Source of the DNA: an uncultured Candidatus Saccharibacteria bacterium
Lineage (GTDB): Bacteria; Patescibacteriota; JABMPQ01; JAQVVF01
Assembly (NCBI GenBank): GCA_964574655.1
Contig: CAZNOH010000002.1
Span: 108,596-172,595 of the forward strand
Direction: 5' to 3'
DNA: 64,000 bases
In this document: one piece after another, positions 11,040-39,569 of the stretch
Numbering within the stretch: the stretch's first letter is position 1
How the letters are laid out: each line of letters begins with the position of its first letter
The notes under the pieces: model-generated
The model's input: the letters and a program-made list of their open reading frames with translations, nothing else
Database searches by the model: none
Told to the model about the DNA's origin: nothing
Translations under genes and position numbers: made by a program

Positions 11040-11059
11040 TTCATCCTCCCATATGTTTG

Positions 11060-11695
11060 TCAGCCTGTGATTTTATCCAGTTTATCGCAGAACCAATCCC
11101 AGCCACGCTTGAGCTTGCCAGGACCGGACTTTTTCTTGGGGCAGGGCTCTTCTTCTTCAGACTCCGACGGAGCCTGATCAGAACAGGTCGGCACCTGCTT
11201 TTCAGCTTCTGCTTCAGGCTCTGCCCCTGCCCCTGCCTTGATCTTGGCTTTCGCCGGGGTCTTGGCTCTCGGCTTTGCCTTAGACTCAGTAGGAGTCTTC
11301 TTCTTTCTGCCCTTGCCACCACCAGCCGGTGGGGTAGCAGCAGCCGCGTGAGCGGGTGCAGCAGCGGGAGCAGCCGGAGCGCGAGCAGGCGCAACAACCG
11401 GAGCCGGAGCAGCAGGAGCTACACCCGGACGAGCCGGGCGAGCTGCCACGCGCACCGGAACCGGTGCATCATCGTCGTCATCATCATCGTCGTCGTCAAT
11501 CACAACACCGCCACGCGGTGCAACGACCGGAGCCGCAACCACCAATGCATCCAAATCACCCAAATCCAAATCGCCAGCCGCAGGCTCTGGTGCATCAACG
11601 ACAGCATTACGCTTGTCGCCATTGCAAACCGGACAAATAAAACCACCTCTAAAATCAACATCTGAACCACAAATAGGGCATTGTTCACGTGCCAT
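11060..11695 (-). CDS. zinc-ribbon protein with a poly-Asp run (10 D), an Ala/Pro-rich region and a Lys-rich region; first gene of the GC-rich operon
   Basis: The start ATG at 11693-11695 is preceded by AGGAGGAG. N-terminal CPICGSDVDFRGGFICPVCNG. DDDDDDDDDD is encoded at about 11468-11497. Very GC-rich, GCC/CCG/GCG codons. The track's 11060..11875 version is over-extended. Confidence 0.6.
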   Translation of the reverse strand: MAREQCPICGSDVDFRGGFICPVCNGDKRNAVVDAPEPAAGDLDLGDLDALVVAAPVVAPRGGVVIDDDDDDDDDDAPVPVRVAARPARPGVAPAAPAPVVAPARAPAAPAAAPAHAAAATPPAGGGKGRKKKTPTESKAKPRAKTPAKAKIKAGAGAEPEAEAEKQVPTCSDQAPSESEEEEPCPKKKSGPGKLKRGWDWFCDKLDKITG

Positions 11696-12010: not shown

Positions 12011-12014
12011 ATGT

Positions 12015-12097
12015 GCGGACGTGGTGAAATGGCAGACATGCTAGCCTTAGGAGCTAGTGGGGTAAAACCCATGAGAGTTCGAGTCTCTCCGTCCGCA
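12015..12097 (+). tRNA. tRNA-Leu (anticodon UAG), class II with a long variable arm
   Basis: Acceptor GCGGACG/CGTCCGC plus discriminator A. Anticodon arm CUAGC-CUUAGGA-GCUAG gives UAG. Variable arm ggg-gtaaaa-ccc. T arm GAGAG-TTCGAGT-CTCTC. CCA is not encoded. Confidence 0.85.
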
Positions 12098-12272
12098 AAT
12101 AAATTAACATAGAGTTTTCCGCAGAACCCTGCCTTCATGGCAGGGCGAGTCTCTTCCTCGGCAACTAATAATTCTCAAATCGAAAATTATTAATGAGTTC
12201 AAATATCAAATTATAATTATCAAAAGAGAAGCGATTAACGCTTCTTTTTCTTGCTCAATAAATTTTACGATT

Positions 12273-13003: not shown

Positions 13004-14050
13004 TTAAGAGTGCTTTGCGACCAGTTTTACAATTTCTCCCCACAAAGGAACAATCAGCGAAGGAGCGAGATTTCTTCTCTGAAGAAGTACAATCTCTCTC
13101 AAAAAAGAAGCTGCCAAGTAGAAGTCAAACCTTCTTTCCCAATTTTGATCTTTACCTTGGAGGACATTCGCATTGAACTCAGTTCCAAAGCGTCTGGCTC
13201 CAAGCTGCATTTTTTTACACATTTCCTTATGTCTTACCTGATAATGAAGAGTGACAACGCCGTCGCGACGATCATACCTTGGCGTGCCATCAACCAAGCT
13301 CGTTTTTGACGAACAATATTTTCCAACACGCATTAAAGCTTCACACCAATCAATTCTTCCAGCCCATTCCAGATCAATAATCTTGACACCCCAGCGATTC
13401 CCTCTGCGTACCTTGTAGACCAAGATGTTCTCGCCTTTGAGATCACCGTGTGCCAAAACTGTCCAGGGCAGATCTTCTTCCAAAAATTTCTTCAAAATTT
13501 TAATGCAAGATTGAAGAGATGGATAAGTCTTGCCTCTTACAACAACCGGGCATTCAGTTTCGTTTCCAAAAACACTGCTCAAAGCTGCTACAGTATCTGC
13601 CATCTCCAATCTGATAATCGAATTTTCGCTTTGGCCGCCTTCTTGGACAGTTTGCGACCAGATACTATGCTTTACCTTCAAAATATTCTGATACATTTCC
13701 CAGAACTGATCCGCCGGAATTCCACGATGGTCAGGATCGAAAGCAAGTTCCTTGAATGTCGCCCGAACCTCTTTTACAAATTGGATGATAATGTAATCAT
13801 CTCCAACATGCAAAAGCTCCGGGATTTGATTACCAAAATGTGGCTTCAATAGTTTATAGCCGTGGACTTCCTTTGCAATTCTTGCCGGAGTCCCAACTTT
13901 TACAACGATTGCTCGGCGATCGCCATTGGTCTGATTTAATATGACATGGACAACCTGTGCACCAGTTACGCTGTCATGGGCCAAAGACGTTACGCTTCTT
14001 ACTTTTCTCCCAGGAAAATGATTTCTAATAGCATCATAGATTCTCTGCAT
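13004..14050 (-). CDS. APH/choline-kinase-family phosphotransferase (possibly an anomeric sugar kinase)
   Basis: Kinase-like HGDLKGENILV motif and IIDLEWAG. SD ggaggtaagg lies before the ATG. GC elevated. Confidence 0.65.
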   Translation of the reverse strand: MQRIYDAIRNHFPGRKVRSVTSLAHDSVTGAQVVHVILNQTNGDRRAIVVKVGTPARIAKEVHGYKLLKPHFGNQIPELLHVGDDYIIIQFVKEVRATFKELAFDPDHRGIPADQFWEMYQNILKVKHSIWSQTVQEGGQSENSIIRLEMADTVAALSSVFGNETECPVVVRGKTYPSLQSCIKILKKFLEEDLPWTVLAHGDLKGENILVYKVRRGNRWGVKIIDLEWAGRIDWCEALMRVGKYCSSKTSLVDGTPRYDRRDGVVTLHYQVRHKEMCKKMQLGARRFGTEFNANVLQGKDQNWERRFDFYLAASFLREIVLLQRRNLAPSLIVPLWGEIVKLVAKHS

Positions 14051-14055
14051 TTTCC

Positions 14056-15063
14056 TTACCTCCAGAGAGCGCGCATCATTTCAATCGGAACTATTTTGAT
14101 TCCACGTGCGCAAGAGAGAGGGACATCAGTGATCGTATCATGCTGAATTGCAACCATTCTGCCAAAATTACCAGCTTCCGCAAGACTCAAAGCATGTTTT
14201 GCAAATCTTCTCGCCAAAATGCGATCAAAAGCGTTTGGAAATCCACCGCGCACAGAATCAGCAAGCTGAGTCCAGCGGGTTTCAATGCCAGTTCTCTTTT
14301 GAAGAATATCAGCTAAAGTTTTTGCAACACCTCTTTCACGCAACAACTCATGATCGAATCCATCCAAAGATGTTGTTTCCTTGCATCCAGCAGGTTTTGC
14401 ATTTTCTGCGCAAACAACCAAACCAGATTCGCAATCGTGATCAATGAAATATCTGCACATAGCATCAATGTCAAGAGGGAATTCAGGCAGAACAATCCAA
14501 TCAGCGTGAGATCCAGCACCAGCATACAGAGCAACCCATCCAGCATGTCTGCCCAGAGTTTCGACAACTGCGATTCTCTGATGGGCAAAAGCCGAATCTC
14601 GAGCAGAGAGAATTGCATGGATCGAGTTATCAACAACAGACATGAATCCAATCGAGTAATCAGTTTCTGGCAAATCATTGTCCAAAGTCTTTGGAATCCC
14701 AATTACCGGCAGACCAAGATCTGACAGCTTTGAAGCAACTCCAAGAGTATCTTCACCGCCAATAGCAATCAAGACATCGAAATCACCCAAAACTACCTTA
14801 ATGGTTTCCAAACGATCTTCATTGCCAGGCTTGAATGGATCAAGTCTCGAAGTGCCCAGATAGGATAGAGTAGTAGCAGTAATTGCTACAGCTAGATTTT
14901 TGTCAGACAGATCTGCGTTATTTCCATATTCAGCAAGACCTTTCCAGCCGTTACGAAAGCCAGTCAAATTATGCTCCTGCATGAAAATTATCAGATTTGC
15001 AATCACATCGTTGATCCCTGGACAATGCCCACCGCCCGTAAGCACCGCGATCCGAAGTAACAT
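14056..15063 (-). CDS. 6-phosphofructokinase family protein
   Basis: TGGGHCPGIN, GGEDT (GGDGS-like), PKTLDND and LGRHAGW motifs. The start at MLLRIAV is preceded by aggaaggagga. GC elevated. Confidence 0.7.
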   Translation of the reverse strand: MLLRIAVLTGGGHCPGINDVIANLIIFMQEHNLTGFRNGWKGLAEYGNNADLSDKNLAVAITATTLSYLGTSRLDPFKPGNEDRLETIKVVLGDFDVLIAIGGEDTLGVASKLSDLGLPVIGIPKTLDNDLPETDYSIGFMSVVDNSIHAILSARDSAFAHQRIAVVETLGRHAGWVALYAGAGSHADWIVLPEFPLDIDAMCRYFIDHDCESGLVVCAENAKPAGCKETTSLDGFDHELLRERGVAKTLADILQKRTGIETRWTQLADSVRGGFPNAFDRILARRFAKHALSLAEAGNFGRMVAIQHDTITDVPLSCARGIKIVPIEMMRALWR

Positions 15064-15271
15064 CTTGTCCTCCTTCCTTTTTCCTCCGCGTTTCAATTAT
15101 TTTTAAGGTTCAATGCAGACAATTTTCATATACTATCATATAGGTATATATAATTATAAACGAGTACCCAACCATGCGTCAATATCATGGTGTGGATAAT
15201 TATTCAAAAACAAAAAAAGCCCAAATCCAGGCTTTTACTTTACAAACTTTAAAAACATTATAACTTTAGAA

Positions 15272-17271: not shown

Positions 17272-17298
17272 ATTTAGCAAAATCAATAAGGCGAAAAA

Positions 17299-17326
17299 AT
17301 AGCCTTATTTTTTTGTCTTGTATTGA
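17299..17326 (+). terminator. intrinsic terminator (aaggc...gcctt plus T7)
   Basis: aaggcgaaaaaatagccttattttttt. Confidence 0.55.
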
Positions 17327-17381
17327 CTTTATATGTAAATTTTGTTTTAATTAAGCCAGTACCTTTGACGAGGAGGACAAG

Positions 17382-17600
17382 ATGCGTACTAGCGATATGT
17401 TTCAAAGATCCATTGACTTAATTCGTGCTCAACTAGAAACAGAAGAAGACCCGAAAGTGATTGAACTTGCTGAAAGACTTATTGTAGGCTTGGAGAGAAA
17501 TAAAAACGCAGTTATTGATTCTGGCATTGATATTGATGAAGAGACTGATCCGATCTTTGCCCAACGCAGGTTTTTAAGAGACAATGGACTAATTACCTAA
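17382..17600 (+). CDS. small acidic hypothetical protein (72 aa)
   Basis: Strong SD gaggaggacaag precedes the ATG. Upstream is TTGACT-N17-TTTAAT, and downstream is the hairpin tctagagcagttatgctcttttttt. Confidence 0.5.
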   Translation: MRTSDMFQRSIDLIRAQLETEEDPKVIELAERLIVGLERNKNAVIDSGIDIDEETDPIFAQRRFLRDNGLIT

Positions 17601-17692
17601 AAATTTGAACATTATCTAGAGCAGTTATGCTCTTTTTTTATTTATCAAAATTTAATATAATAAAAGTAATATAAATTAAATAAGGAGGGGAT

Positions 17693-19933
17693 ATGAAAAA
17701 GATTATTTTTATAATTCTTTTCATTATTTTGGGAGGGTTTTTTATTTGGCCAAATTTTCAAGTTTTCGCCAATTCTTATCACGATGTTGTAATCAACGAA
17801 CTGATGTGGATGGGATCGGCTACCTCGTCTAGTGATGAATGGATAGAATTGAAAAATATGACAGATCAAGATATCGATTTTTCAGTAAACAATTGGACAA
17901 TATATAAAAATGATGTTTTGATGGTGACCCTTAATCAAGGAATTATTAAAGCTAATAGTTATTTCTTAATTTCAAAAAATGATAAAGAAAATTCAATTAT
18001 TAACATCGTCCCAGATTTGAAGGTTGCGTCTTTCAAAAACTCTCTTAATAATTCCGATGTTCAGTATAAACTTTATGATAGCCTGATTAATCTAGAAGAG
18101 AATTTAATAGACATAGCTGATGATGGCACTGGTGCTCCATTAGCAGGTTTAAATGGTGCATTTAAAGTTTCTATGGAAAGAAATTCAGAACCAGAAGATG
18201 GTTCCTTAGCTTCAAATTGGCATAACTCTCAAGAACAGATAAATCTTGATTCAAATTCAACAGACTTCGCAACCCCAAAGGATCAAAATAGTGAGAATAT
18301 GCAAACGCCAACAATTTTTCCAGACCAGATATTTATCAATGAAATATTGCCAAATCCGAAGGATTCAGATGATGCAGAATTTATCGAGCTTTACAATAAT
18401 AATTCATTTGACGTTGATTTAACAAATTGGCAGATAGGCGATAGCACAACTTCGCGTTATGCAATTAAAACTTCTGATTTTGCGGATCCAAAAATTAAAG
18501 CCAAAAGCTATTTTCTTCTGCCAAAATCAATTATTAATATTACTTTAAATAATGATTCTGATTCAGTTAAATTATATCAACCAAATCAGAATTTACTTGA
18601 TCAAATTGATTATTCAGAATGTTTTGAAGGTCAAAGTTATAATAAAGTTAGCGATAATAATTGGCAATGGTCAGAGACTTTAACGCCAAATGCTGTAAAT
18701 ATTATTTCTCAAAGCAATAGCCAAGTTAGCGAGCCCAAATCACCAGAAGCAATTATAGAAATTCCAAAGGGTCCATATTTCAAAAAAATTATAATAACCG
18801 AAATTTTGCCAAATCCAAAAGGTTCTGATAATGAGGCTAAAGGCGAATTTATTGAAATAAAAAACATTGGCTTGAAAACAGTTGACCTTTTTGCCTGGTA
18901 TATTGATGATCAAAAAGATGGTTCAACCCCTTATCAAATCAAAGAGCATTTAAAAATCAAACCACAAAAATATTTAGTTTTTTATAAAGGCAAAACAAAA
19001 TTATCTTTAAATAATTCTAATGAGTCAGTCAGAATTTTATGGCCTGACAAAAAAGTTTTACAGGAAATTAAATTTAAAGAATCAGCAAAAGAAGGACAAT
19101 CATTTAGTCTTAAAGACAATAAATGGTCATGGACTTCTTCTATCACGCCTGGCAGAGATAATATTATAAAATCCGCCTCCGCTAAAGCTCCGGCGGACAA
19201 GCAAGAAAACAAAAAAACAACAAAACAAGAAAACAATGAAACAAATCTTTTTAAAATAAAAGAAGTCAGAGGGCTAAAACGTTACGATTCTTTAAAAACA
19301 TCCGGCATTGTTATTGTTCCTCCAAAAACAATTTCGCAGACTTCTTTTTACATTCAAGACGAAACATCTGGCATTCAAGTTTATTTTTCCAAAAAAGATT
19401 TTCCAGATTTAAAGCTTGGTGACAAAATAGAGGTTAGCGGTAAATTATCAGAAGCCTCAAATGAAAAAAGAATTTTAATTTCAAGTAAAGAAGATATTAA
19501 AATAATTAGCAATAATCAAAGTTTAACTGCAACTCAAATTGAAACTGGCAAAGTCAGCGAAGATTTAGAAGGCAAATTAGTTTTAGCTTCTGGACAAATT
19601 GAAAAATTAGCTGGTTCAACATTGTATATTAATGATGGTTCAGGTACTCTAAAAATTTACATACCTGATTCAAATATTGAAAAGCCGAAACTTAAAAAAG
19701 GCGATTGGGTTACCTATCAAGGCATAATCAGCGAAACTTCCAGCGGTTATCGGCTTTTGCCAAGATTTACAAGCGATATAAAGTCCGGAAAATTTTCATT
19801 TACGCCAGCCCAAGGTTTGACTCAAATTCCAAAAGCCGGATCAAATTTAAATTTATTTTTTTCTCTATTAGTTTTTGCTTCCAGTTTTCTTCTTTTTGCA
19901 ATAAAAAAACCTATCAAAATGATAGGAAATTAA
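17693..19933 (+). CDS. secreted, C-terminally membrane-anchored protein with three lamin-tail-domain (LTD) repeats
   Basis: SD aaggagggg. Signal peptide. Three INE(L/I)...EFIEL.N...DL..W motifs (VVINELMWMG..DEWIELKN; FINEILPNPKDSDDAEFIELYNN; ITEILPNPKGSDNEAKGEFIEIKN). Hydrophobic C-terminal anchor. Confidence 0.6.
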   Translation: MKKIIFIILFIILGGFFIWPNFQVFANSYHDVVINELMWMGSATSSSDEWIELKNMTDQDIDFSVNNWTIYKNDVLMVTLNQGIIKANSYFLISKNDKENSIINIVPDLKVASFKNSLNNSDVQYKLYDSLINLEENLIDIADDGTGAPLAGLNGAFKVSMERNSEPEDGSLASNWHNSQEQINLDSNSTDFATPKDQNSENMQTPTIFPDQIFINEILPNPKDSDDAEFIELYNNNSFDVDLTNWQIGDSTTSRYAIKTSDFADPKIKAKSYFLLPKSIINITLNNDSDSVKLYQPNQNLLDQIDYSECFEGQSYNKVSDNNWQWSETLTPNAVNIISQSNSQVSEPKSPEAIIEIPKGPYFKKIIITEILPNPKGSDNEAKGEFIEIKNIGLKTVDLFAWYIDDQKDGSTPYQIKEHLKIKPQKYLVFYKGKTKLSLNNSNESVRILWPDKKVLQEIKFKESAKEGQSFSLKDNKWSWTSSITPGRDNIIKSASAKAPADKQENKKTTKQENNETNLFKIKEVRGLKRYDSLKTSGIVIVPPKTISQTSFYIQDETSGIQVYFSKKDFPDLKLGDKIEVSGKLSEASNEKRILISSKEDIKIISNNQSLTATQIETGKVSEDLEGKLVLASGQIEKLAGSTLYINDGSGTLKIYIPDSNIEKPKLKKGDWVTYQGIISETSSGYRLLPRFTSDIKSGKFSFTPAQGLTQIPKAGSNLNLFFSLLVFASSFLLFAIKKPIKMIGN

Positions 19934-20202
19934 GGAGCTGGTCTTAAAAAACAATCGGCAAATCTTCCAGTAGCTTCAGATGATAGTTTCGCGCGAACAA
20001 TAAAAGTATTTTTAAAATGGAGGAGACAATCTGAATCATGATGACGATCGCAATAAGTGTCGCACGTGCACCATACATCACGTTCTTTTACAGAAGTTAC
20101 TTCGAATGGTCCGATTCCAAACTCTTGAACAATTTTTCTAGTCTTTGGACAATCAATAACAGTTACTCTTTCTCCAACCGTAAACACATGTTTTTCTGCC
20201 AT
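19930..20202 (-). CDS. small Cys-rich hypothetical protein, paralog of 20233-20544
   Basis: MAEKHVFTVGERVTV..GIGPFEVTSVKERDV..CTCDTYCDRHHDSDC. SD aaggagga. Elevated GC. Confidence 0.5.
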   Translation of the reverse strand: MAEKHVFTVGERVTVIDCPKTRKIVQEFGIGPFEVTSVKERDVWCTCDTYCDRHHDSDCLLHFKNTFIVRAKLSSEATGRFADCFLRPAP

Positions 20203-20232
20203 CTCTTCCTCCTTGTCCGTCGGATAACAGAA

Positions 20233-20544
20233 CTAAGGTACTAGTTCAAAATAAACACCATGCAATCCAATTCTTTCTTCGGTTTGCTCTTCTCCTGTTG
20301 AGATAATCGCTACAGATTGAGGATGGCCATAATATTCTACTCGATAGATTCCGCAACTTCTTGGATGTTTGTTTTTGATTGTTCCGCAATCACATTGAGT
20401 TGGAACATCTTTGACATCCACTACTTCGAATGGACCATCGCCATACTTTAGTCGAAATTTCAGTACCTTCATCGAAAGTTGACGGTCAGGAGCTGAAGTC
20501 CAGTTGACCTTTTCACCAATAGCGAATAAATGCTGTTCTGACAT
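20233..20544 (-). CDS. small Cys-rich hypothetical protein, paralog of 19930-20202
   Basis: MSEQHLFAIGEKVNW..GDGPFEVVDVKDVPTQCDCGT...HPRSCG. SD aggaggagg. Elevated GC. Confidence 0.5.
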   Translation of the reverse strand: MSEQHLFAIGEKVNWTSAPDRQLSMKVLKFRLKYGDGPFEVVDVKDVPTQCDCGTIKNKHPRSCGIYRVEYYGHPQSVAIISTGEEQTEERIGLHGVYFELVP

Positions 20545-20581
20545 TTTGTCCTCCTCCTGTTCTTGCCATCAACAACAACTC

Positions 20582-20610
20582 ATTTTATCTCAAAATAATT
20601 AATTTGTCAA
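20582..20610 (-). promoter_or_regulatory. near-consensus sigma70 promoter (TTGACA-N17-TAAAAT) for the paralog pair
   Basis: The reverse complement reads ttgacaaattaattattttgagataaaat, about 35 nt upstream of the SD/ATG at 20544. Confidence 0.5.
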
Positions 20611-20612
20611 TT

Positions 20613-20744
20613 ATGCCAAAAGAATTAGAACAAAAATTGAAAAAACAAGCTAATAAAAAAGGTTTTAAAGGCAAAAGAGCTAACGCTTATATTTTTGGAA
20701 CATTAAGAAAAACTGGCTGGACACCAAAAAGAAAAAAGAAATAA
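20613..20744 (+). CDS. unannotated small basic protein (43 aa)
   Basis: atgccaaaagaattagaa... translates to MPKELEQKLKKQANKKGFKGKRANAYIFGTLRKTGWTPKRKKK*. It is below the ORF-track length cutoff. Confidence 0.4.
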   Translation: MPKELEQKLKKQANKKGFKGKRANAYIFGTLRKTGWTPKRKKK

Positions 20745-20808
20745 TTGACAAAAACTTTTTTTAGCACTATATTAATCAATCAGCACTTTCAAAAACAAGG
20801 AGGGGAGA

Positions 20809-21204
20809 ATGAGCAGAAAAGTAGAAATATTTTTTGTTTCGTTTATTTTTTTGTTAGCAATTGCTTATGTATCTGGCATTATTTTCAAGCTAAACTATCT
20901 ATTAGCTTTAGCTAACTCTGCGCCTACGCCACAACAAACATTAGCATTTCTTGCAATGCTATTTTTAGGGTTTTTGGTTGGCTATGTCGTCATTACCGTG
21001 TTTGTTAATGTTTTTTTGAAAAAATGTGATTGTTGTCGTGGTCGCGGACTTGTAAAAAAAGTCATCTTTGCAGGTCATCATGCAGATGTGAAAACAAAAG
21101 AATACGAGTTTTGCTTTAGATGTCGCATCCAAGAATCATGGAAAAAGCACGAGGAACTTATTCATATGAAAGATTATTCGATCATTCATATTTCTTTGAT
21201 CTAA
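20809..21204 (+). CDS. membrane protein (2 TM) with a C-terminal Cys cluster (CDCCRGRG...CFRCR)
   Basis: SD aaggagggg. Two hydrophobic helices followed by a CxCC...CxxC tail. Confidence 0.5.
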   Translation: MSRKVEIFFVSFIFLLAIAYVSGIIFKLNYLLALANSAPTPQQTLAFLAMLFLGFLVGYVVITVFVNVFLKKCDCCRGRGLVKKVIFAGHHADVKTKEYEFCFRCRIQESWKKHEELIHMKDYSIIHISLI

Positions 21205-21324
21205 CCCAATTTTGTTGGGTTTTTTTATTTTTCAATGATTTATCCACTTTTAAAAATCATAATTTTATGCTATACTATAAGTAAGAAGATAATTTAATTA
21301 TTTATAATTTTTAATTTTACATTT

Positions 21325-22479
21325 ATGCCGGATCAATTCAAAGAGATTAGCCATCAAGGCTATGGATCAAGAATTATGGGATCGTTTGCTGGAATACTTG
21401 TTGGAATCGTTCTGTTCTTTGCCTCTTTTGTTGTGCTCTATTGGAATGAAAGCAGAGTTGATATGTCTCAAATTGCGAAAACATCAGTTGAAGTTCAATC
21501 TAGCAAAGTTGATGCAAGCTTAGATCAAAAATTGATTTCAGTTACTGGTCCGATAACATCAACAGAAAAATTAAGTGACAACTTATTTTTAAGTGAATCA
21601 GACTATATTGCAATTTATCGTAAATCAGAAATGTTTGCTTGGGAGGAAAAAACTGACACTGATACAACAACGCAAACAGGCGGCAGTCAGACAACTGAAA
21701 CAACTTATACTTATGATACTGCTTGGACTTCAAGTCCAGAAAAATCTTCTAGCTTCAAACAGCCAGAAGGCCATGAAAATCCAAATCAATCTATTACAAG
21801 CGAAACTTTCAAGGCCAATGACGCCAAGATTGATCAATACAAATTAGATATGGCGAATTTAAAACTCGATACAAGCTTATTAGTCGGTGCAGAAAAATTA
21901 CAATTAGATTCAGAAAATACTATTTTGACACCTGCTGACAAAATAGTAGAGAATTACTATGTTTATCAAGGAGCAGGAAATATTGCTAACCCTCAAGTTG
22001 GCGACCAAAAAATAAGCTATTATGTTTTACCGCAAAAAGAAATAATTACAGTTTTTGGAAAATTAAGCAGTGGAAAAATTACAACATATTCTGACGAAAA
22101 AAATAATACCTTATTTAGAGTTTTCTTAGGCGATCGAGCATCTGCAATCTCCACAATGCAAACAGAATATACAATCATGACTTGGATTCTTAGACTTGTT
22201 GGATTTCTAATGATGTGGATTGGTCTATCAGCAATGTTTGGTCCAATCAGTGTTGTTCTAGATTTCTTGCCATTCTTAGGCTCTGCTAGTCGTGCAGTTA
22301 TTGGTTTTATTACGTTCATTGTTGCTTTAGCTTTGTCAGTTTTAACGATTTTGATCTCAATGGTAATTCAAAATATAATTGCCTTAATTATAATTTTAGC
22401 TTTGATAATAGTAACTGCTATAATTATTGCAGTAATTTTTATGAAAAAGAAGAAGGGTGCAAAAAAAGCTACGGCTTAA
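21325..22479 (+). CDS. membrane protein: N-terminal TM, an ~230-aa extracellular region, then a C-terminal 4-TM bundle
   Basis: Hydrophobicity pattern only. No confident family assignment. Confidence 0.5.
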   Translation: MPDQFKEISHQGYGSRIMGSFAGILVGIVLFFASFVVLYWNESRVDMSQIAKTSVEVQSSKVDASLDQKLISVTGPITSTEKLSDNLFLSESDYIAIYRKSEMFAWEEKTDTDTTTQTGGSQTTETTYTYDTAWTSSPEKSSSFKQPEGHENPNQSITSETFKANDAKIDQYKLDMANLKLDTSLLVGAEKLQLDSENTILTPADKIVENYYVYQGAGNIANPQVGDQKISYYVLPQKEIITVFGKLSSGKITTYSDEKNNTLFRVFLGDRASAISTMQTEYTIMTWILRLVGFLMMWIGLSAMFGPISVVLDFLPFLGSASRAVIGFITFIVALALSVLTILISMVIQNIIALIIILALIIVTAIIIAVIFMKKKKGAKKATA

Positions 22480-22508
22480 TAGTTAATAATTAAAATTTAA
22501 TAAATTTA

Positions 22509-22532
22509 AAAACGACCAGAAATGGTCGTTTT
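22509..22532 (+). terminator. intrinsic terminator aaaacgaccagaaatggtcgtttt
   Basis: Stem cgacca/tggtcg plus T-run. Confidence 0.6.
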
Positions 22533-22567
22533 GATTTAAATTACCTGGATTAAAGAGGTTGGAATAA

Positions 22568-22645
22568 AGAGGTCCGACCTCTCACTAGAGGTCGGACCTC
22601 TTCAGACCTTAACAATAAAAAAATCCGTCAAAAACGGATTACAAA
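22568..22645. terminator. two hairpins: a 15-bp perfect palindrome (gaggtccgacctct-cacta-gaggtcggacctct), then atccgt...acggat with a T-run on the minus strand (terminator of 22665-22889)
   Basis: Read directly. Confidence 0.55.
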
Positions 22646-22664
22646 GTACAAAAATAAATAATAT

Positions 22665-22889
22665 TTAACAGCTTTTGCTGTGAATGAGAGCAGGATCGAA
22701 GCTGATTTCATCCTGATGGACGTCGGGATTGATTTCGCCGTTTGCCAATCTCACTCGATAATGCATCTCACGTTGTCCATCTTGCCAATCACCAACAATT
22801 GAAACTACATGCCCAGCAAACAATCCAACTCGACAGTTTGTCAATTCAGGATCATGAATCTGATGTATTCCATGTCCTTGTTCGCGCAT
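22665..22889 (-). CDS. small hypothetical protein (74 aa) with its own promoter and terminator
   Basis: SD aaaaggagcg precedes the ATG. Elevated GC. No recognisable motif. Confidence 0.5.
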   Translation of the reverse strand: MREQGHGIHQIHDPELTNCRVGLFAGHVVSIVGDWQDGQREMHYRVRLANGEINPDVHQDEISFDPALIHSKSC

Positions 22890-22939
22890 TTTACGCTCCT
22901 TTTTTCCTCGGGTGCTGTCTGGTTCGCTACCTTGCAGAG

Positions 22940-22967
22940 ATTATAACACTAAATTTATAGAAGTCAA
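22940..22967 (-). promoter_or_regulatory. near-consensus sigma70 promoter (TTGACT-N16-TATAAT)
   Basis: The reverse complement reads ttgacttctataaatttagtgttataat. It sits at the very 3' end of the GH18 gene. Confidence 0.55.
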
Positions 22968-22969
22968 GT

Positions 22970-25567
22970 CTATTTCTTTTGCCTCAGATCAACCACTCCC
23001 GCTCTGTTATTAACATTTTTTGCAACGTCTGGTTCTGTTCTTGTATGTTCTTTTTTTACAGTTTCTTTAACTCTTTTGCCAATCTCTCTTTTCAATCCAG
23101 AGAATATAAAAATATTAATAATTACAATGCTGAACATCACCAGATAAGGCACTGCTTCAGTTGAAATCAACCTTTTGCCAAAAATCATGCCAGCTGCTTT
23201 CAATTTTTCTTGAGATTTATTTAAACTATCATTAATTCTTTGCCACAGGCTATTTGCTTTTGGCGTTACCTCAACTTCCTTAGTTCTGGCGCTTTCATTA
23301 CCGCTTAAATCAATTGCTGAAATTGATACAAAATAGTGATAATTATTTTCCAAATTTTCTAATATATAAATATTTTTTTCAGGTTTTATTTCGATTGCTT
23401 TATAAAAACTTTTTTCTTGCTTATAATATAATTTATAATATGCTAAATCTTTTTCGCTATTTTTATTCCAGCTTGCTTCGATTTTAGAATCGCCAGCTAA
23501 TAATACAGGCGCGCTTGGAATTTTGGGAGGAATCGTATCAATCGTATTAGCCGAAATTATATTTGAAATTAATGATGGATTTTTTTCTTCATCCAATGTT
23601 TTAACAGCAATAAAATACTTAGTTCCAGGAGTTAAAGTTTTTAGTTGTATTTCTTGTAATGATGGGGGAATTAGCAATTCAGGATAAGCCTTGTATTGAG
23701 TAGCTTGATAAAAATTATTTTCATTAATTAAACTTTCAGAATATCTAATGTCATAATAGCTTGCCAAGCCTTGATCAAAATCATCGCCAGACGCTGTCCA
23801 CTCTAAATTAATCGTTGTATCTGTTGGGTTGAAAGCTTTTAGATCTTTAATTGTGTTAGGAAATGCTAAATCAGTCGGTGTTGTCACAACTTGCGGTTCA
23901 AGATTATCTTCATCAATATCATCATTCAACAAAGCATCCCAAGTTAGAGGCAAAATTGAAATATAATATTCTTCATTATTTTCCAAATTTGGAATCAAAA
24001 TTTCAGTTTCTCTGAAAACACTCAAGAATCTTTGTTCACCGCCTTGTTTCTTGAACAAAATTTTATAACCTTTAAAATTTTTGTTGATCGGACTTTCCCA
24101 TGACAATTTTATTTCGGAATCAAGTGGCTCCACTTTAATATTATAAACCGAATCAACTTCTAAGCGTTTTATATTTTTTAATGGATTAAAATTTCCTTGA
24201 TCTTCATTTCCAAGTCGCCAAATAGCTATTCCTGCAATTCCTAATTTTTTAATGACATTAATTTTTTCAGTAATGCTTCTTTCATTTTCAAAATAAACAG
24301 TATGTGGATTTCCTTTATCATCTTTATAATAGAACCAAGGACATTTTGCTTCATCATCCCATTCAACTTCAATATTATTTTCATCAATTATATTTTTTAC
24401 GCCATCATAAACCAAGCCTCTATTTTCGCACATTCCTTCAGTGCACCAGTCATAAGCATAAAAAGGCAAACCAGCAATTACTTTTAACGGATCAACTTTG
24501 CTTTGAGCATAAGTCAAAGCTTTTACCATCCATTTTATTGGCGCAATTGGACCAGGCTGGGTGTTTGTTCTTGAATGATCATAAGTCATTATCCTAATTT
24601 GATCAGCAACCTCGCCTAATTTTTCAAAATCATAGGCTTGTAACCAAGATTCATCATCAGATTGTTTCGCTTGAAGCGTTACCGACAAGATTTTATCAAT
24701 TTGGTGTATTTCCTTGCCTAGTACTTTAATATATTGGCTAAAATCTTCTCTTGCTTTTGCATCCAAATTTTCAAAATCAATATCAATGCCGTCATAATCA
24801 TTTTCTTTAATTTCCGAAATTATCATGTCAATATTTTTTTTTCTCTTTCGCCAATCCATTACAACAGCAGTTCCTTTTGAGTTATCGTCAAAATTATTTG
24901 TAATTGTTGGAATATTTTTTTTATCCGAATTTTTCAATTTCTCCTTCATTTCCTCATCAAAAATATCGCCATGTTTTTTTATTGTGCCATCAGGTTCAAG
25001 GGAATAAATAAAAGGTGATAAACCGGTAAAAACATCAAAATTATTATTCACAGTGTTTTTTTGATCAGGCACATCAATCATAGGCATCCAGCCAATGACT
25101 TGAAACCCATTGCTGTCTGATGAGTTTGGCGCAATGCCTATTTCTTTTGTTGCTTTGCTTTTATTTCCAGCCTTGTCTTGTGCTTGGATGCTGACAAAGT
25201 AAAATGCGCTCGCCAAATCTTTGATTTGATATGAAAAAACATTATTAGCTACGAAAATAGGATCGCTATCTTCCTTTTCCACCGAAGTCCGCAGATTAAT
25301 TAAATATTTATCAACCTCATCTTCTTTGACACTTACTTTCCAATTTAATTCCAAAGCATTATCTAAAGCCTTTACATTAAAGCCTTGAGGAATATGAGGT
25401 GGGTTAGTGTCATCCTTATCTTTAAGTTGCGTATCAGAAGTATTAGTGCTCGTATTTGTGTCATTAGTGTTTGCATTAGTGTGTAACACAAATAACACCT
25501 GAAATATAATTAGGACTAATACAAAACTGCAGATTATTTTTTTGTTTTTTAGTTTTTTCATCTGCAC
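22970..25567 (-). CDS. surface protein with a GH18-like (chitinase-fold) domain and fibronectin-III-like repeats, C-terminal TM anchor
   Basis: Signal peptide. YDGIDIDFENL (the DGxDxDxE catalytic motif with W replaced by F) and IRIMTYDHS (the MxYD motif). Repeated about 90-aa segments of the Fn3 type (LEWTASGDD, ASWNKNSEKD). Confidence 0.55.
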   Translation of the reverse strand: MQMKKLKNKKIICSFVLVLIIFQVLFVLHTNANTNDTNTSTNTSDTQLKDKDDTNPPHIPQGFNVKALDNALELNWKVSVKEDEVDKYLINLRTSVEKEDSDPIFVANNVFSYQIKDLASAFYFVSIQAQDKAGNKSKATKEIGIAPNSSDSNGFQVIGWMPMIDVPDQKNTVNNNFDVFTGLSPFIYSLEPDGTIKKHGDIFDEEMKEKLKNSDKKNIPTITNNFDDNSKGTAVVMDWRKRKKNIDMIISEIKENDYDGIDIDFENLDAKAREDFSQYIKVLGKEIHQIDKILSVTLQAKQSDDESWLQAYDFEKLGEVADQIRIMTYDHSRTNTQPGPIAPIKWMVKALTYAQSKVDPLKVIAGLPFYAYDWCTEGMCENRGLVYDGVKNIIDENNIEVEWDDEAKCPWFYYKDDKGNPHTVYFENERSITEKINVIKKLGIAGIAIWRLGNEDQGNFNPLKNIKRLEVDSVYNIKVEPLDSEIKLSWESPINKNFKGYKILFKKQGGEQRFLSVFRETEILIPNLENNEEYYISILPLTWDALLNDDIDEDNLEPQVVTTPTDLAFPNTIKDLKAFNPTDTTINLEWTASGDDFDQGLASYYDIRYSESLINENNFYQATQYKAYPELLIPPSLQEIQLKTLTPGTKYFIAVKTLDEEKNPSLISNIISANTIDTIPPKIPSAPVLLAGDSKIEASWNKNSEKDLAYYKLYYKQEKSFYKAIEIKPEKNIYILENLENNYHYFVSISAIDLSGNESARTKEVEVTPKANSLWQRINDSLNKSQEKLKAAGMIFGKRLISTEAVPYLVMFSIVIINIFIFSGLKREIGKRVKETVKKEHTRTEPDVAKNVNNRAGVVDLRQKK

Positions 25568-25746
25568 TAATAATATAGCATATTTACAGTTGTTTAGAAA
25601 TTGGTTATTAGAAATTTAATAGACATTAGGAATTGGTAATTAGAAATTCGTAGCGAAGTTATCAACCATTCATAATTGTCCATTTAAACAATTTTTGCTA
25701 TAATATAATAAACGAAAGAAAATCTTAAAACAAAAGACAATTAATC

Positions 25747-26523
25747 ATGAAAAATTTCAAGCCGTTAGGGGATATTTTTCGCTCAACCTGGAATCAGTTT
25801 GAGAAAAATTGGGGTAATTATGTCGGCATATCAGCAATCTTTACAGTTGCTCAGTTTGTCGTTATTTTTGTTATTGTTTTCTCAATAATATTTTTACAAT
25901 TTGCAGGATTATTGGGCAGTATTCCGTTAATGATTAATCAAGATTCAACAACAGCTGGAATCGGTGGATTGTTGATGATTACAGTTATTGTCACCACATC
26001 ATTACTTTTATTTATAATTATTTTTGGCCTTAGTTTTCTTATCAATGCTTGGTTAATGAGTTCCTTAATTACGATTATTGCAAAAAAGCAGGAAGGTAAT
26101 TTAGATTTTATTCAATTCATCAAATCCTGCTGGCCAAAAGTTTGGAAGGTTTTTGGTGCATTAATTTTAATGGGATTAATAATTTTTGCAGGCTTTATCT
26201 GCTTTATTATTCCTGGAATAATATTTGGATTATGGCTTTCTCAAGTTTTATTCCTAATCATTTTAGAAGACTTGTCTATTGGCGAGGCTTTCAAAAAATC
26301 AAAAGAATTAGTCAAAGGCTATATGGGCACTGTTTTTCTGTATAATTTTGTTTTTATCATTGTCTTAGAAGTTGGAATGATGGCTGTTAATATTATTCCT
26401 TTTCTAGGAACTTTAGCTATGCCTTTCTTGAGTATCGTTGCAACTCCGTTAATTGTAATTTTTCAATATCAAATATTTTTAGAACTTAAAAAAACTAAAC
26501 ATGCCACAAACGCCTCAAATTGA
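25747..26523 (+). CDS. polytopic membrane protein (about 6 TM), hypothetical
   Basis: Hydrophobicity only. Confidence 0.5.
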   Translation: MKNFKPLGDIFRSTWNQFEKNWGNYVGISAIFTVAQFVVIFVIVFSIIFLQFAGLLGSIPLMINQDSTTAGIGGLLMITVIVTTSLLLFIIIFGLSFLINAWLMSSLITIIAKKQEGNLDFIQFIKSCWPKVWKVFGALILMGLIIFAGFICFIIPGIIFGLWLSQVLFLIILEDLSIGEAFKKSKELVKGYMGTVFLYNFVFIIVLEVGMMAVNIIPFLGTLAMPFLSIVATPLIVIFQYQIFLELKKTKHATNASN

Positions 26524-29500
26524 AACAAAAGCAAAAACAAGCCAAATAACAGCCATCATTGCTACCGTTGCCGCAGCAATTGGTATTGGCGCACTTATTT
26601 ATTTTGCTGTTAGTAATAACAACATCAAAGTCGCTACCGAAGCAACCTTGCCGTTATTCGAGCAAGAATATCAGCCAAATGTTGAGCCAGTTACTACGAC
26701 AACAACTGACAAAGCTGTAATTGCCGATACTCAAGCAAAATATCAAACAATTGCAAACTCAGTAATGCCAGTTGTTGAAAAGCAAGCACAAACTACAGGC
26801 AAGACTACTGCTCAAATTATCAACGAAACTCAAAAAGATATTCTTGTGCAACAAGTAGCAGAATTAAACATTGCTAAAACATCAACAATAATTCAAGATC
26901 AAGTCATTGCTTTAGCTGATAAGGGCGCTATTGACAGCTTCCAAGTGCAAGCTGCCGAAGAATTAGCCTTAAGTGCGACGTATGATAACCTGACTAACGC
27001 AACCACAAGCAAAGAGGTTGTGAATCCTTATGTTGAGTTTACAAGCGCTCAAGTAAAAGACATCCAAATTGTTGCTGAAAATGTTGCTAATGAAGTTACT
27101 CAACTCAACACTGCTTCATCTTCAGAAATTGCACAGAAAACAGATAGCAACGAAAATGATGTCAATTCCGTAATGACTGTTGAATTTAACACTCAATTAA
27201 ACAATGCAGTAGAAAGTAATAACGTGGTTAATGATTACGAAGTTAACTATGCGATTAATGCTGAAGCTACTGAAAATGCTAACGAATCAGGAACAGCTTT
27301 TTCTGTTTGCAACACAAACACTAATAATTGTGAAATGACTGGTTCCGTGTTTGCAACAAAAGAACAATGTGAAGAATTATATAAGCAACAAGGTTTAGAC
27401 ATCATTTGTTACAATAGCCCTAATGAATGTATGGCCAATACTGCTTGCGGACAGGCGCAAGAGGCAATCGAAACACAATACGAATTTTTTTATTGCAAGG
27501 ATGGAGCATGGACTAGCCAGAATTTTGTAAGTGATCCTGGTGTGATAAAGCCAATAGCAACTGCGCGTGAAAATTGTCAAAACAGTAATAATGTAGAAAT
27601 ATGTTATCTTGAAAATGAGAACAGTTTTCAAGCAGCTAAGGATGCTTGTCAGCCACAAGCAGTAGTCATTGAAGCTGTTGATGAACCAGCACCAGAACAA
27701 ACTAATCTCAGAGTAATTTGTCAAAATCAAGCTTGTGTTGAAACACAAATCCCTATAGATGCCGAGCCTTGTGCAAATGGCGATCCAATAGAAGAAGCCA
27801 AAGCTGGTTGTTATAGCGATATGGCAAGCTGTCAAGATTCTGATTGCGAGCCAAAACAAGATTATTATTACTGTGAAGAAAATGTTGGCTGTCAAATCAC
27901 TTCATCTACTGAAGAAGCTTGTGCTAGACAATATGGAACTTGTTATCCAACAAATGTTGCTGGCTCAGGTGAAAGCTGTAATACTAGCTGTAATAAACAA
28001 GAATTACAAACCTTTGCTACTGTCCAACAGCCCATGAGGCCATTCCAATTTTGCGATAAACAGCAAAAACAATGTGTAATTACCTCAGTATATTACATTA
28101 GTCCTGAGGCTTGCGCTCAAGCAATGGGAGTTGAAAAATGTTATGAAATAAATGATAATGTTTGCCAAGAAGAGCCTGATTGCAAAAAAGAAGATCCAAT
28201 TTTAGATCCAATTAAAGACGAATGCGACAAAAATCTTCCTAATAATCCTTACTGCCAAGAAGAAGTTGTTAGAATAGTTGAAGAACAAATTAATAATCAG
28301 CAACCTGAAGAGCCTGTTACAATTGAAGATCCAAAACTAGCGCTTGCTTCATCAATAATTTATCGCGGATTAGGCAGAGTTATAATCAAGTTTTGGGCTG
28401 ATCCAAATCAACCATTATATTATGATTACACAAGTAAAAAATTAGCTGATGATCATGAAAATAACAAACTTAGAGTTCGGTTCAGCAGTAAAAAAGAAAA
28501 TTTGACTGACATTTTAAAAGTCTACAAAGATCCGCGCAATCCAAACAAATATTATGCAATTGCTTACAAATTAAATATTGATTATCTTTGGCAAAATAAG
28601 GATGGAAATTACAAAAGCCAAAAACATTTTTATCAAGTCAATTCAGATGTTAAAAAATCAGACTTCTTTGATTTCAAATCTCTTCAAAGAGGTGGTGAAG
28701 TTCTATATGTCAAGAACAGATTATACAATGGCAAATATGATTTAAAGAAATATGGGACAATAGAATTAAACTTTAAAAACAAAGGTCAAGTCGCTGATGA
28801 TGTCAAAAAATTAAATAACAAATTAAAAAATTTCGAAAACGGCGGTGTTTACTTCTGGACTGAAAGCTCAAAAGCCTCGCCTTTTGGTTTAAGAACAGCA
28901 ATGGCCGGTGATCAAAGATATAAACAATTTTATAGCATTTTGAAAAGTCTTCAAAAGAAAAACGATATCAATAAAGCTGTCAAAGTTCTCTATAACTATC
29001 ATGATCGTTTGGTTCCAACAAATATCTACAGCCGATATGATCCAGGTTACAAATTTTGGGTAAAGGAAGTAAATAATGGCAACCTTTCATTTAGCAGTAT
29101 GGTTACTTATGTCATGCTAGGAACAGATGAGCCAAGAACAAATCTTCAGCAATTCTGGGGCACTGGCAAACAAGGTTTGAGAAAAGCTGACATTGAACTA
29201 AGCTTTGTTAAATCATTGAGCCGTGGTATTACCCAAATGTCTGATATTTCAAGATTCATGAATGCATCTAAATACGTTTCTACTGCTAGCATTAGAGCAG
29301 ACTTGAGAAATTCGGATGAATTTAGAAGGTTATTGAAGGATGTTTACAAAAGAGGAGGCGCTTCCGATGCTCTTTCATTGCTTTATATAAATATTTTAGG
29401 AAGACCTATTGATCCAGACGGACAGCCATATTTTGTCAACAAGTTTGACAAGCTAAGAAAAGATGGTCTTAGCGCTACTGACGCTTTTATGGAAATCGAC

Positions 29501-29575
29501 AAAGAAATAACTAACAGTACAGAATTCAAGAATGCGCTAATAAGACCAATAAAAACAGAATCAAATGCCAACTAA
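26501..29575 (+). CDS. large surface protein (1024 aa): N-terminal TM, a central Cys-rich region (about 40 Cys), C-terminal DUF4214-like domain
   Basis: The C-terminus LYINILGRPIDPDGQPYFVNKF...STEFKNA matches the DUF4214 signature (LGRxPDxxGxxYW/F...SxEF). Confidence 0.55.
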   Translation: MPQTPQIETKAKTSQITAIIATVAAAIGIGALIYFAVSNNNIKVATEATLPLFEQEYQPNVEPVTTTTTDKAVIADTQAKYQTIANSVMPVVEKQAQTTGKTTAQIINETQKDILVQQVAELNIAKTSTIIQDQVIALADKGAIDSFQVQAAEELALSATYDNLTNATTSKEVVNPYVEFTSAQVKDIQIVAENVANEVTQLNTASSSEIAQKTDSNENDVNSVMTVEFNTQLNNAVESNNVVNDYEVNYAINAEATENANESGTAFSVCNTNTNNCEMTGSVFATKEQCEELYKQQGLDIICYNSPNECMANTACGQAQEAIETQYEFFYCKDGAWTSQNFVSDPGVIKPIATARENCQNSNNVEICYLENENSFQAAKDACQPQAVVIEAVDEPAPEQTNLRVICQNQACVETQIPIDAEPCANGDPIEEAKAGCYSDMASCQDSDCEPKQDYYYCEENVGCQITSSTEEACARQYGTCYPTNVAGSGESCNTSCNKQELQTFATVQQPMRPFQFCDKQQKQCVITSVYYISPEACAQAMGVEKCYEINDNVCQEEPDCKKEDPILDPIKDECDKNLPNNPYCQEEVVRIVEEQINNQQPEEPVTIEDPKLALASSIIYRGLGRVIIKFWADPNQPLYYDYTSKKLADDHENNKLRVRFSSKKENLTDILKVYKDPRNPNKYYAIAYKLNIDYLWQNKDGNYKSQKHFYQVNSDVKKSDFFDFKSLQRGGEVLYVKNRLYNGKYDLKKYGTIELNFKNKGQVADDVKKLNNKLKNFENGGVYFWTESSKASPFGLRTAMAGDQRYKQFYSILKSLQKKNDINKAVKVLYNYHDRLVPTNIYSRYDPGYKFWVKEVNNGNLSFSSMVTYVMLGTDEPRTNLQQFWGTGKQGLRKADIELSFVKSLSRGITQMSDISRFMNASKYVSTASIRADLRNSDEFRRLLKDVYKRGGASDALSLLYINILGRPIDPDGQPYFVNKFDKLRKDGLSATDAFMEIDKEITNSTEFKNALIRPIKTESNAN

Positions 29576-30146
29576 AGTTTCTACAAAAGTTAATGTTACT
29601 GTTTTGACTGGTACGATTTTAGCCGGCATTGCCATGTTTGCCCTCGCTGGATTCGGTTTCCTTAAAAATGAAATAGAGCCAACTATCAAGAATAATCTGC
29701 CAGGCTGGGCATGGAGTTTCCAAAATCCAGATAACTATGAATTTGATAAAGAAAAAATCAGAATTGAAAATTCAGTTGTTGAACTACAGCAAGGACAAGA
29801 ACAAGGAGAAATAAAAAATATCTATCCGTATTCTTATGGCTGTTATCCCAATCCTGCAGTTGGTTTCCTTGCTGATTTAGACGGCGAAGTTACTTTTCAA
29901 ATTAGCAAAGACAATTTGAATTGGTATTATTGGAATAAAAATTCTTGGAAAAATGTTGCTAACATTGATCAAGCAAATACAGCTTCAGACATTAGCAAGC
30001 ATATAGTTGATTTTTATCCGAGAACACAGAATCAGTTTTATTTTAAAGCTATCCTGAATAAAAAAGATAGTCGCTTGAGAGGAATAGAAATAACTTGCGA
30101 TGAATCAACACTGAACAAATTTGAACTCTATCCGAAAAGTCTCTAG
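29565..30146 (+). CDS. N-terminally anchored hypothetical protein
   Basis: One N-terminal hydrophobic helix. Overlaps the upstream gene by 11 nt. Confidence 0.45.
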   Translation: MPTKVSTKVNVTVLTGTILAGIAMFALAGFGFLKNEIEPTIKNNLPGWAWSFQNPDNYEFDKEKIRIENSVVELQQGQEQGEIKNIYPYSYGCYPNPAVGFLADLDGEVTFQISKDNLNWYYWNKNSWKNVANIDQANTASDISKHIVDFYPRTQNQFYFKAILNKKDSRLRGIEITCDESTLNKFELYPKSL

Positions 30147-30213
30147 TTTACATAAAAGCCAGCAAATTAAAATGCTGGTTTTTTTAAATCATGAATGTTA
30201 TATTATCATAATC

Positions 30214-30322
30214 ACCAAGATACAAGATACAAACAAATTTTAAATTAAAATAATCAAACACGACGACGAGTTTGGTCATTGTAATTTAGATATTGAATAT
30301 TGTTTGTTTCTTGTATCTTGGT
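30214..30322. repeat. intergenic palindromic element (caagataca word arms, centre aaacacgacgacgagtttgg)
   Basis: accaagatacaagatacaaacaaatt...attgtttgtttcttgtatcttggt. Confidence 0.75.
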
Positions 30323-30334
30323 TATTAAGTATTA

Positions 30335-39535: not shown

Positions 39536-39569
39536 TCTCTTTCCTCCTTTTGTTTCAGACTGGCTTAAA

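Follow-up and report, generated by a model that had tools for sequence, protein, structure and literature searches.

Small genes with their own promoters, Shine-Dalgarno sequences, and terminators in a Patescibacteria genome: probably resident, fast-evolving cassettes

We analyzed a 64-kb stretch of DNA (the window; 64,000 nucleotides [nt], positions 108,596 to 172,595 of contig CAZNOH010000002.1, assembly GCA_964574655.1) from an uncultured Candidatus Saccharibacteria bacterium of the Patescibacteria. Four small genes in the window, a tandem pair encoding Cys-rich paralogs of 103 and 90 aa, a 74-aa gene, and a 125-aa gene, had been predicted from the sequence to form a distinct class with canonical promoters and Shine-Dalgarno sequences (SDs), acquired horizontally and superimposed on a native genome. 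We identified such a class in the window, and its small genes are probably resident, fast-evolving, autonomously expressed small-gene cassettes of this Patescibacteria lineage, not recent imports. The expression signals of the cassettes are more strongly conserved than their coding sequences.

Genes led by Shine-Dalgarno sequences

A GGAGG-type SD located 4 to 8 nt before the start codon was identified in 13 of the 58 window genes and was absent in the other 45. SD strength, taken as the energy of the duplex with the anti-SD, was bimodal, with 11 genes at or below -8.5 kcal/mol and 47 genes above -7.1 kcal/mol. The GGAGG motif occurred at 54 sites in the window, 11 of which were placed 4 to 8 nt before listed gene starts, and 2 further sites led to corrected starts, for phosphofructokinase (PFK) at ATG 15063 and for a Zn-ribbon gene at ATG 11695, with approximately 0.15 sites expected at the SD position by chance of position according to our own estimate. 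All four small open reading frames (ORFs) were present where they had been placed by the original prediction, with anti-SD duplexes of -8.5 to -11.4 kcal/mol and SD spacings of 5 to 8 nt. The GGAGG SDs claimed for them were confirmed 5 to 8 nt before both paralogs and the 125-aa gene, whereas AAGGAG takes its place at the 74-aa gene. Instead of being scattered, as had been suggested, the SD-led genes are concentrated, with 12 of the 13 between 8.0 and 22.9 kb of the window.

Sites matching the sigma-70 consensus at 11 or more of 12 positions numbered 10 in the window compared to 3.5 ± 1.3 in Markov simulations, approximately 3 times the expectation, and 5 of the 10 best sites were located 57 to 86 nt upstream of SD-led genes. 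Promoters of this quality were associated with SD genes in the window (Fisher p = 0.0045). The promoters of the four small genes all lie 61 to 78 nt before the start. Near-perfect promoters had been proposed for all of them, and those of the pair and of the 74-aa gene matched 11 of 12 positions and ranked top in a scan of 12 to 26 kb, whereas that of the 125-aa gene matched 9 of 12, which is chance level when taken alone. Intrinsic terminators, each a GC-rich hairpin with a T run, were identified after each small-gene unit (19926 to 19910, 22640 to 22622, and 39126 to 39111). The existence of a distinct gene class combining canonical promoter, SD, and terminator is hence borne out in the window. 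A candidate leader motif shared by these genes, CAGYACYTT, was rejected, with an insignificant 4 occurrences compared to 1.6 expected, and matches to AAGCCAGY were found mostly outside leaders.

In addition to approximately 64 kb of the organism's own genome, approximately 60 kb of DNA from relatives was examined. The related loci included L003 from STF1_73 (JAQVVF010000010.1; approximately 80% nt identity to the window), L011/L012, L006 to L008, and L010 from the Ga0376277/Ga0172379/SRR18595301 lineage (TMEM43 gene 83.8% nt), L013 from SRR22388014 (TMEM43 82.3% nt), L016 from ERZ27250635 (flanks 82% to 84% nt), and L014/L015 from GCA_030611905.1, the most distant relative (TMEM43 56% aa). C-terminal identities of the lamin-tail-domain (LTD) protein grouped the window with L003 and L016, and L011 with L013, with L014 as the outgroup. 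A first metagenome scan with TMEM43 as the query returned no matches.

Five related loci contained 22 SD-led genes, nearly all of them small. With the LTD gene as the sole exception, these either had no counterpart in the window or did not exceed 60% identity to it, and the genes without an SD in these loci were mostly 80% to 95% identical to the window. The SD-led class is enriched in variable or fast-evolving genes. Three genes, encoding the LTD protein, a 131-aa protein, and the 74-aa protein, retained their site, promoter, and SD across relatives.

The paralog pair, the 74-aa gene, the 125-aa gene, and similar cassettes

The Cys-rich pair is encoded on the reverse strand, with paralog 1 (P0001, 103 aa) at 20233 to 20544 behind the SD GGAGGAGG at 20557 to 20550 and paralog 2 (P0002, 90 aa) at 19930 to 20202 behind the SD GGAGG at 20212 to 20208. 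The promoter at 20582 to 20610 (TTGACA-N17-TAAAAT, 11/12) has a -35 box that abuts the ATG of an opposite-strand 43-aa gene, and the terminator at 19910 to 19926 lies inside the final codons of the convergent LTD gene. The paralog relationship proposed for the two genes was confirmed, with 37% identity over 60 aa (E = 4e-12), and their proposed cotranscription is probable given a gap of 30 nt, a shared promoter, and no terminator between them. The count of 4 Cys in each protein was incorrect, as P0001 and P0002 have 3 and 6, respectively, and the N-termini quoted for the two proteins had been swapped relative to their coordinates. The leader of the pair had no notable structure (z = -1.8).

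The 43-aa gene (MPKELEQKLKKQANKKGFKGKR...; 20613 to 20744, forward strand) encodes a lysine-rich basic protein, lacks an SD, is conserved in most relatives, and forms the right-hand edge of the presence/absence difference of the pair. In L003, L011/L012, and L013, the pair is missing and the LTD gene nearly adjoins the 43-aa gene, with a few tens of bases between them. A single homologue (P0014) was identified between the LTD and 43-aa genes of L016, in the same orientation as in the window, with the pair promoter conserved and nearly identical and with a similar hairpin downstream. The outgroup L014 also harbors a single homologue (P0025) in the position and orientation of the window, with a TTGACA-N17-TATAAT promoter and AAGGAGG. 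Because homologues occupy one syntenic site in both the close L016 and the distant L014, an ancestral pair gene followed by two losses and one tandem duplication would be more plausible than repeated gains at one site.

When 1.84 billion representative proteins were searched exhaustively with a hidden Markov model (HMM), 21 distant homologues of the pair were identified, each of approximately 100 aa, in about 20 clusters. The pair represents a previously undescribed family of approximately 100-aa proteins, with the motif GxGPF...CxC...H...C...GHxQ, of which GHxQ is missing from P0002. Across 22 sequences, G37, P38, C51, C53, and C64 were invariant and F7, V13, G35, F39, H60, H74, and Q76 near-invariant. 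The family therefore has four candidate ligands, C51, C53, C64, and H60, and probably binds zinc via a Cys2-His-Cys zinc knuckle. Short and rich in Cys and His, with a likely structural metal site, the two proteins resemble zinc-ribbon and zinc-knuckle proteins, but their ligand pattern is CxC-x(6-14)-H-x3-C and not the two CxxC knuckles of zinc ribbons. The only Pfam signal was a sub-threshold match of P0002 to Zn_ribbon_PRDM4 (13.5 bits compared to a cut-off of 25.8).

The AlphaFold2 (AF2) model of P0001 obtained with the family alignment had a predicted local distance difference test score (pLDDT) of 89.6 and predicts an SH3-like barrel. Its nearest Foldseek matches were SH3-like barrels with template modeling (TM) scores of 0.4 to 0.5, all non-significant (E ≥ 0.2). 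The predicted topology resembles those of HspQ/YccV (5ycq), R67 DHFR (2rk1), PWWP/Tudor, and eL14/eL27-type proteins (7ohq_T, 8hku), from which P0001 differs by an inserted CxC...H-x3-C loop and by having no sequence similarity to them. The combination of a predicted SH3-like barrel with a zinc knuckle suggests small binding modules.

No hit in Pfam, PHROGs, NCBIfam, or PADLOC was obtained for the small proteins or for any pair-family member, and PDB sequence searches were likewise negative. A word-based homology search with the pair recovered the pair itself alone, a second one with the family alignment brought no further members, and profile comparison indicated that the pair family is unrelated to the 74-aa family and to the 125-aa protein. 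One HMM match, P0011, was repetitive and was rejected as a false member, and a match of P0001 to Gordonia phage Buggaboo was discarded since it lies antisense to an annotated gene. The two genes do not have the makeup of a toxin-antitoxin pair, being mutual paralogs without hits in Pfam and PADLOC. In other genomes, members of the family stand alone and carry TTGACA promoters of their own. In L017 (2611 to 3250), an unrelated locus of approximately 50% GC, P0010 is preceded by a 72-aa paralog without the Cys residues, and by this observation tandem pairing recurs in the family.

The 74-aa gene (P0003; 22665 to 22889, reverse strand) has its SD, AAGGAG, at 22901 to 22896, and its promoter (22940 to 22967; TTGACT-N16-TATAAT with TG, 11/12) begins 3 nt past the stop codon of the glycosyl hydrolase family 18 (GH18) gene. 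The terminator of its own that had been predicted was found at 22622 to 22640 and is conserved in L010 and L011, both of which retain the promoter as TTGACT-N16-TATAGT. Orthologues were identified directly after GH18 in 4/4 relatives covering the site, encoding 77 aa in L010 to L012 and 89 aa in L013, each with a TTGACx promoter, GGAGG SD, and terminator, and L014 has a 119-aa gene there that is probably the counterpart. The dN/dS of the gene was 0.19, with a dN of 0.34 compared to 0.08 to 0.10 for TMEM43, phosphoglucose isomerase (PGI), and GH18, and identity dropped with genome distance (56%, 47%, and approximately 21%). The 74-aa protein is listed from Logan assemblies only, not from NCBI, and this conserved gene was probably overlooked in the deposited annotation.

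The 125-aa gene (P0004; 39158 to 39535, reverse strand) has a GTG start, an SD (GGAGG) at 39547 to 39543, a putative promoter at 39568 to 39596 (TTGACT-N17-TAAATT, 9/12), and a terminator at 39111 to 39126 that is usable in both directions. The gene sits in a variable slot between ClpP and RNase Y and was seen in this genome only, with no homologue in any relative locus fetched. In L006 to L008, the slot lacks the 125-aa gene and holds other genes, among them a 41-aa gene and an Rce1-like gene that both have GGAGG; the Rce1-like gene also has a TTGACA promoter. AF2 modeling of the 125-aa protein from its single sequence gave a poor, unusable model (pLDDT 41.8).

Similar units were identified elsewhere in the window. 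A 72-aa cassette on the forward strand (17323 to 17633, ORF 17382 to 17600; TTGACT-N17-TTTAAT, SD GAGGAGGA, terminator 17618 to 17633) lies in the slot between PGI and LTD, which holds 1 to 4 tandem cassettes: one of 72 aa in the window (slot 17272 to 17692), one of 107 aa in L003 (6602 to 7128), four in L011 (5272 to 6630), and one in L013 (2021 to 3335). These cassettes share a TTGACW-N17-TTTAAT promoter, a GAGGAGGA SD, and a AGAGCAGTTATGCTC terminator, while their ORFs are highly diverged, several of them sharing a central LVELxIK...FFL motif. Between the window and L003, the expression signals of the 72-aa slot (promoter, leader, and terminator) were 80% to 82% conserved, whereas the ORFs were 32% identical and effectively unalignable. 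A 131-aa cassette, also on the forward strand (20745 to 21221, ORF 20809 to 21204; TTGACA-N17-TATATT, GGAGGGG SD, terminator 21203 to 21221), encodes a membrane and Cys-rich protein conserved in L003, L011, L013, and L014 but fast-evolving, with 45% to 60% aa identity among close relatives.

Two operons on the reverse strand are also SD-led. The operon of PFK and a kinase-like gene, which the original prediction had called an APH kinase, spans 13004 to 15182 with a promoter at 15182 to 15153 (TTGACG-N18-TATAAT), and both genes carry a GGAGG SD, that of PFK preceding the corrected start. This operon shares the promoter and GGAGG SDs of the class, as had been predicted. It has raised GC at third codon positions (GC3), and its counterpart in L003 has 84% to 90% aa identity and equally raised GC3. 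The Zn-ribbon operon of two genes (10119 to 11695; GC 50% to 52%, GC3 0.42 to 0.56), with a GGAGG SD on both, is compositionally far more unusual than the four small genes, and its homologues in L003 have 35% to 47% aa identity and similarly high GC3.

Composition and origin of the small genes

Higher GC than the neighbors had been claimed for the four small genes, and their total GC was indeed raised, at 0.38 to 0.44 compared to a median of 0.34 (79th to 93rd percentile). The rise, however, lies at the first codon position (GC1; 81st to 96th percentile in the window), and GC3 was not consistently elevated, with values of 0.20, 0.28, 0.35, and 0.22 compared to a median of 0.26 (6th, 70th, 91st, and 15th percentile). 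Across the window, SD strength was correlated with GC1 (rho -0.34, p = 0.009) and not with GC3 (rho 0.01), so that of the genome-wide correlations that had been proposed, the one between SD and GC3 fails within the window, whereas the association between SD and promoter is present. Relative to the window average, the four soluble proteins contain more Gly, Ala, Val, Asp, and Glu and less Lys, Asn, Ile, Phe, and Tyr. With GC1 raised and GC3 at background, the GC signal of the four genes therefore reflects amino acid composition and not foreign DNA. Total GC alone can mislead toward horizontal transfer when amino acid composition drives it.

In the arrangement that we propose, a near-consensus sigma-70 promoter would be followed by a leader of approximately 20 to 50 nt, a GGAGG-type SD 5 to 8 nt before the start, 1 or 2 small ORFs, and an intrinsic terminator, and such cassettes would occupy gaps between SD-less genes, the majority class that presumably initiates translation without an SD. 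The cassette ORFs appear to diverge approximately 3 to 5 times faster than neighboring genes and to be duplicated, lost, or replaced, and the strong promoter and SD would give the small cytoplasmic proteins independent and probably high expression. Because the cassettes turn over rapidly, their proteins may have a role in host, phage, or cell-cell conflict.

Recent import from higher-GC, SD-using donors, with the foreign promoters and SDs kept, would account for the absence of the pair from its site in L003, L011/L012, and L013, for a 125-aa gene unique to this genome in a variable slot, for the high total GC of the four genes, and for the patchy distribution of the pair family, which also occurs in loci of approximately 50% GC in other organisms (L004 and L017). 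Yet the GC3 of the four genes is at background, the 74-aa gene is syntenic and conserved in all 4 relatives covering its site, a pair-family member occupies one site and orientation in L016 and the outgroup L014, and SDs and promoters are conserved gene by gene in relatives, including those of the LTD and 131-aa genes. No integrase or transposase domains were identified among the neighboring genes, and no flanking direct repeats around the small-gene units, the sole tRNA (12014 to 12098) being far from all four genes. Searches of PHROGs and PADLOC found no phage or defense homologues of the small proteins, and a tblastn search of 50,697 phage records returned one spurious antisense match only, plasmids not having been searched. 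We consequently regard the horizontal acquisition put forward by the original prediction as unlikely. An origin through a diversity-generating retroelement (DGR) or through repeats was also rejected, with no repeats involving these genes and no reverse-transcriptase domain among the scanned neighbors.

A different form of transfer would be the exchange of cassettes, in which the conserved promoter, SD, and terminator serve as homology arms and ORFs are swapped with divergent alleles of the population by recombination. The contrast between signals and ORFs in the 72-aa slot would be expected from such swapping, as would the promoter, leader, and terminator shared by tandem cassettes, the 40% identity of P0001 and P0014 despite flanks 82% to 84% identical in nt, and pair-family copies that are about equidistant whatever the genome distance. 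The identity of the 74-aa gene, however, falls with genome distance as vertical descent with fast divergence predicts, and the ORFs of the PGI-LTD slot share a diverged central motif and may thus be fast-diverging paralogs, not unrelated cargo; exchange seems to us an improbable general explanation. We consider it very unlikely indeed that the small ORFs are non-functional, whether as chance ORFs in small-RNA genes or as decaying pseudogenes beside strong signals, although none of the four proteins matches curated families, the 74-aa gene is seemingly uncalled in the NCBI record, and the 125-aa protein is poorly modeled from its single sequence. The dN/dS of the 74-aa gene, the invariant Cys, Gly, and Pro and conserved His columns in 22 sequences of the pair family together with its confident model, and the correctly spaced SD before every start, conserved in orthologues, all argue for function.

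Several points weigh against reading the small genes as resident cassettes. The evidence is drawn only from the DNA of this genome and its relatives described above, and promoters, SDs, and terminators were called by consensus matches alone. The presence of an anti-SD is deduced from the enrichment of GGAGG at SD positions, the 3' end of the organism's own 16S rRNA being outside the window, and the anti-SD has reportedly been lost in part of Parcubacteria (PMC9297842). Copies of the pair family are 27% to 40% identical even where the flanks of the genomes are 82% identical, and replacement by divergent alleles through recombination, a form of transfer, would fit as well as very fast divergence in place. 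The 125-aa gene, which has no homologue, offers no evidence of either age or origin. The PFK/kinase and Zn-ribbon operons have raised GC3 (0.34 to 0.56), and some SD-led genes, these operons among them, may be old acquisitions. Variable genes without an SD also exist, namely the 23S_rRNA_IVP gene and a 211-aa gene in L006.

Genes without a Shine-Dalgarno sequence and implications for Patescibacteria

The remainder of the genome had been described as relying on palindromic elements with weak or no SDs, which agrees with the 45 SD-less genes of the window, mostly set apart by long AT-rich hairpins. The gaps between these genes are mostly imperfect palindromes of 100 to 140 nt, AT-rich, with a right arm ending 0 to 10 nt before the start and with building units of 7 to 8 nt (e.g., TTTAGAA, GAAATT, ATTCGTA, and TTAGCAA). 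The one hairpin that was folded, at 36066 to 36202, had an energy of -35.3 kcal/mol (z = -7.9). Similar palindromes precede positions 614, 2351, 2965, 4654, 11875, 30335, 31571, 32491, 34632, 35091, 37099, 41568, 42511, 43746, 53459-57218, and 61559, and the palindromes form repeat families D1 and D3 to D8. A TANAAT hexamer, in some cases preceded by TG, ends 6 to 8 nt before the start in 7 of the 45 SD-less genes (7945, 16105, and 32356 on the reverse strand, and 36203, 44233, 53957, and 54378), compared to approximately 1.3 per other 3-nt bin, which hints at leaderless mRNAs for some SD-less genes. Genes of the 23S_rRNA_IVP four-helix-bundle type (53957 to 54313 in the window; 3448 to 3825 in L006) lie inside intergenic hairpin elements and have no SD, and the L006 copy occupies a site where the window has the hairpin alone.

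The window, from a bacterium with a tiny genome, has an overall GC of 33.5% and encodes IF-2, ClpP, RNase Y, CdaA, RecF, PGI, PFK, TMEM43, the LTD and GH18 proteins, and a type IV secretion system (T4SS)-like cluster. The minimum of the cumulative GC skew falls near 25 kb, gene orientation flips at approximately 25.6 kb, and a recF-like gene is located at 30335 to 31453; a replication origin may lie nearby, at approximately 25,000 to 30,500. At 736 to 2791, a 214-nt repeat occurs 4 times (60% to 70% identity) inside consecutive genes, one with a T4SS-pilin domain, which suggests a family of tandem paralogs.

SD-poor genomes, such as those of Bacteroidia, in which few genes, e.g., rpsU, keep a strong SD, have reportedly been described by Baez et al. 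(2019) and Jha et al. (2021). The window is similar in that a perfect SD is confined to a small minority of genes and most have none, which points to gene-specific SD initiation, but the SD-led set here comprises small, fast-evolving, lineage-specific genes and a few enzymes instead of a ribosomal autoregulatory gene, and its members also carry consensus promoters and their own terminators. The prophage morons of Hendrix and colleagues are reportedly genes that bring a promoter and a terminator of their own and are inserted among conserved genes. The cassettes are likewise autonomous promoter-ORF-terminator units that lie between conserved genes, in many cases on the other strand, and are present or absent among relatives; unlike morons, they have no prophage context, phage homologues, or GC3 difference, and their sites and signals are conserved over long distances.

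Patescibacteria, or the candidate phyla radiation (CPR), are uncultivated, and gene expression in CPR is little understood; our literature search found no paper on gene-by-gene SD usage in their genomes. One speculative extension of the cassette reading, which we hold to be doubtful, is that the lineage maintains fixed chromosomal expression slots, each a conserved promoter, leader, SD, and terminator within which small ORFs undergo duplication, diversification, or exchange, with SD-dependent translation reserved for the fast-evolving set and the rest of the genes translated SD-less and partly leaderless. If true, two translation-initiation regimes would coexist in one cell, and joint control of the small proteins, for example via anti-SD availability, would be possible. 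The pair defines a new small-protein family for which zinc binding is probable. The split between SD-led and SD-less genes, conserved by gene across relatives, provides an annotation rule for real small genes, with the 74-aa gene as a case, and a means of testing how reduced ribosomes initiate translation.

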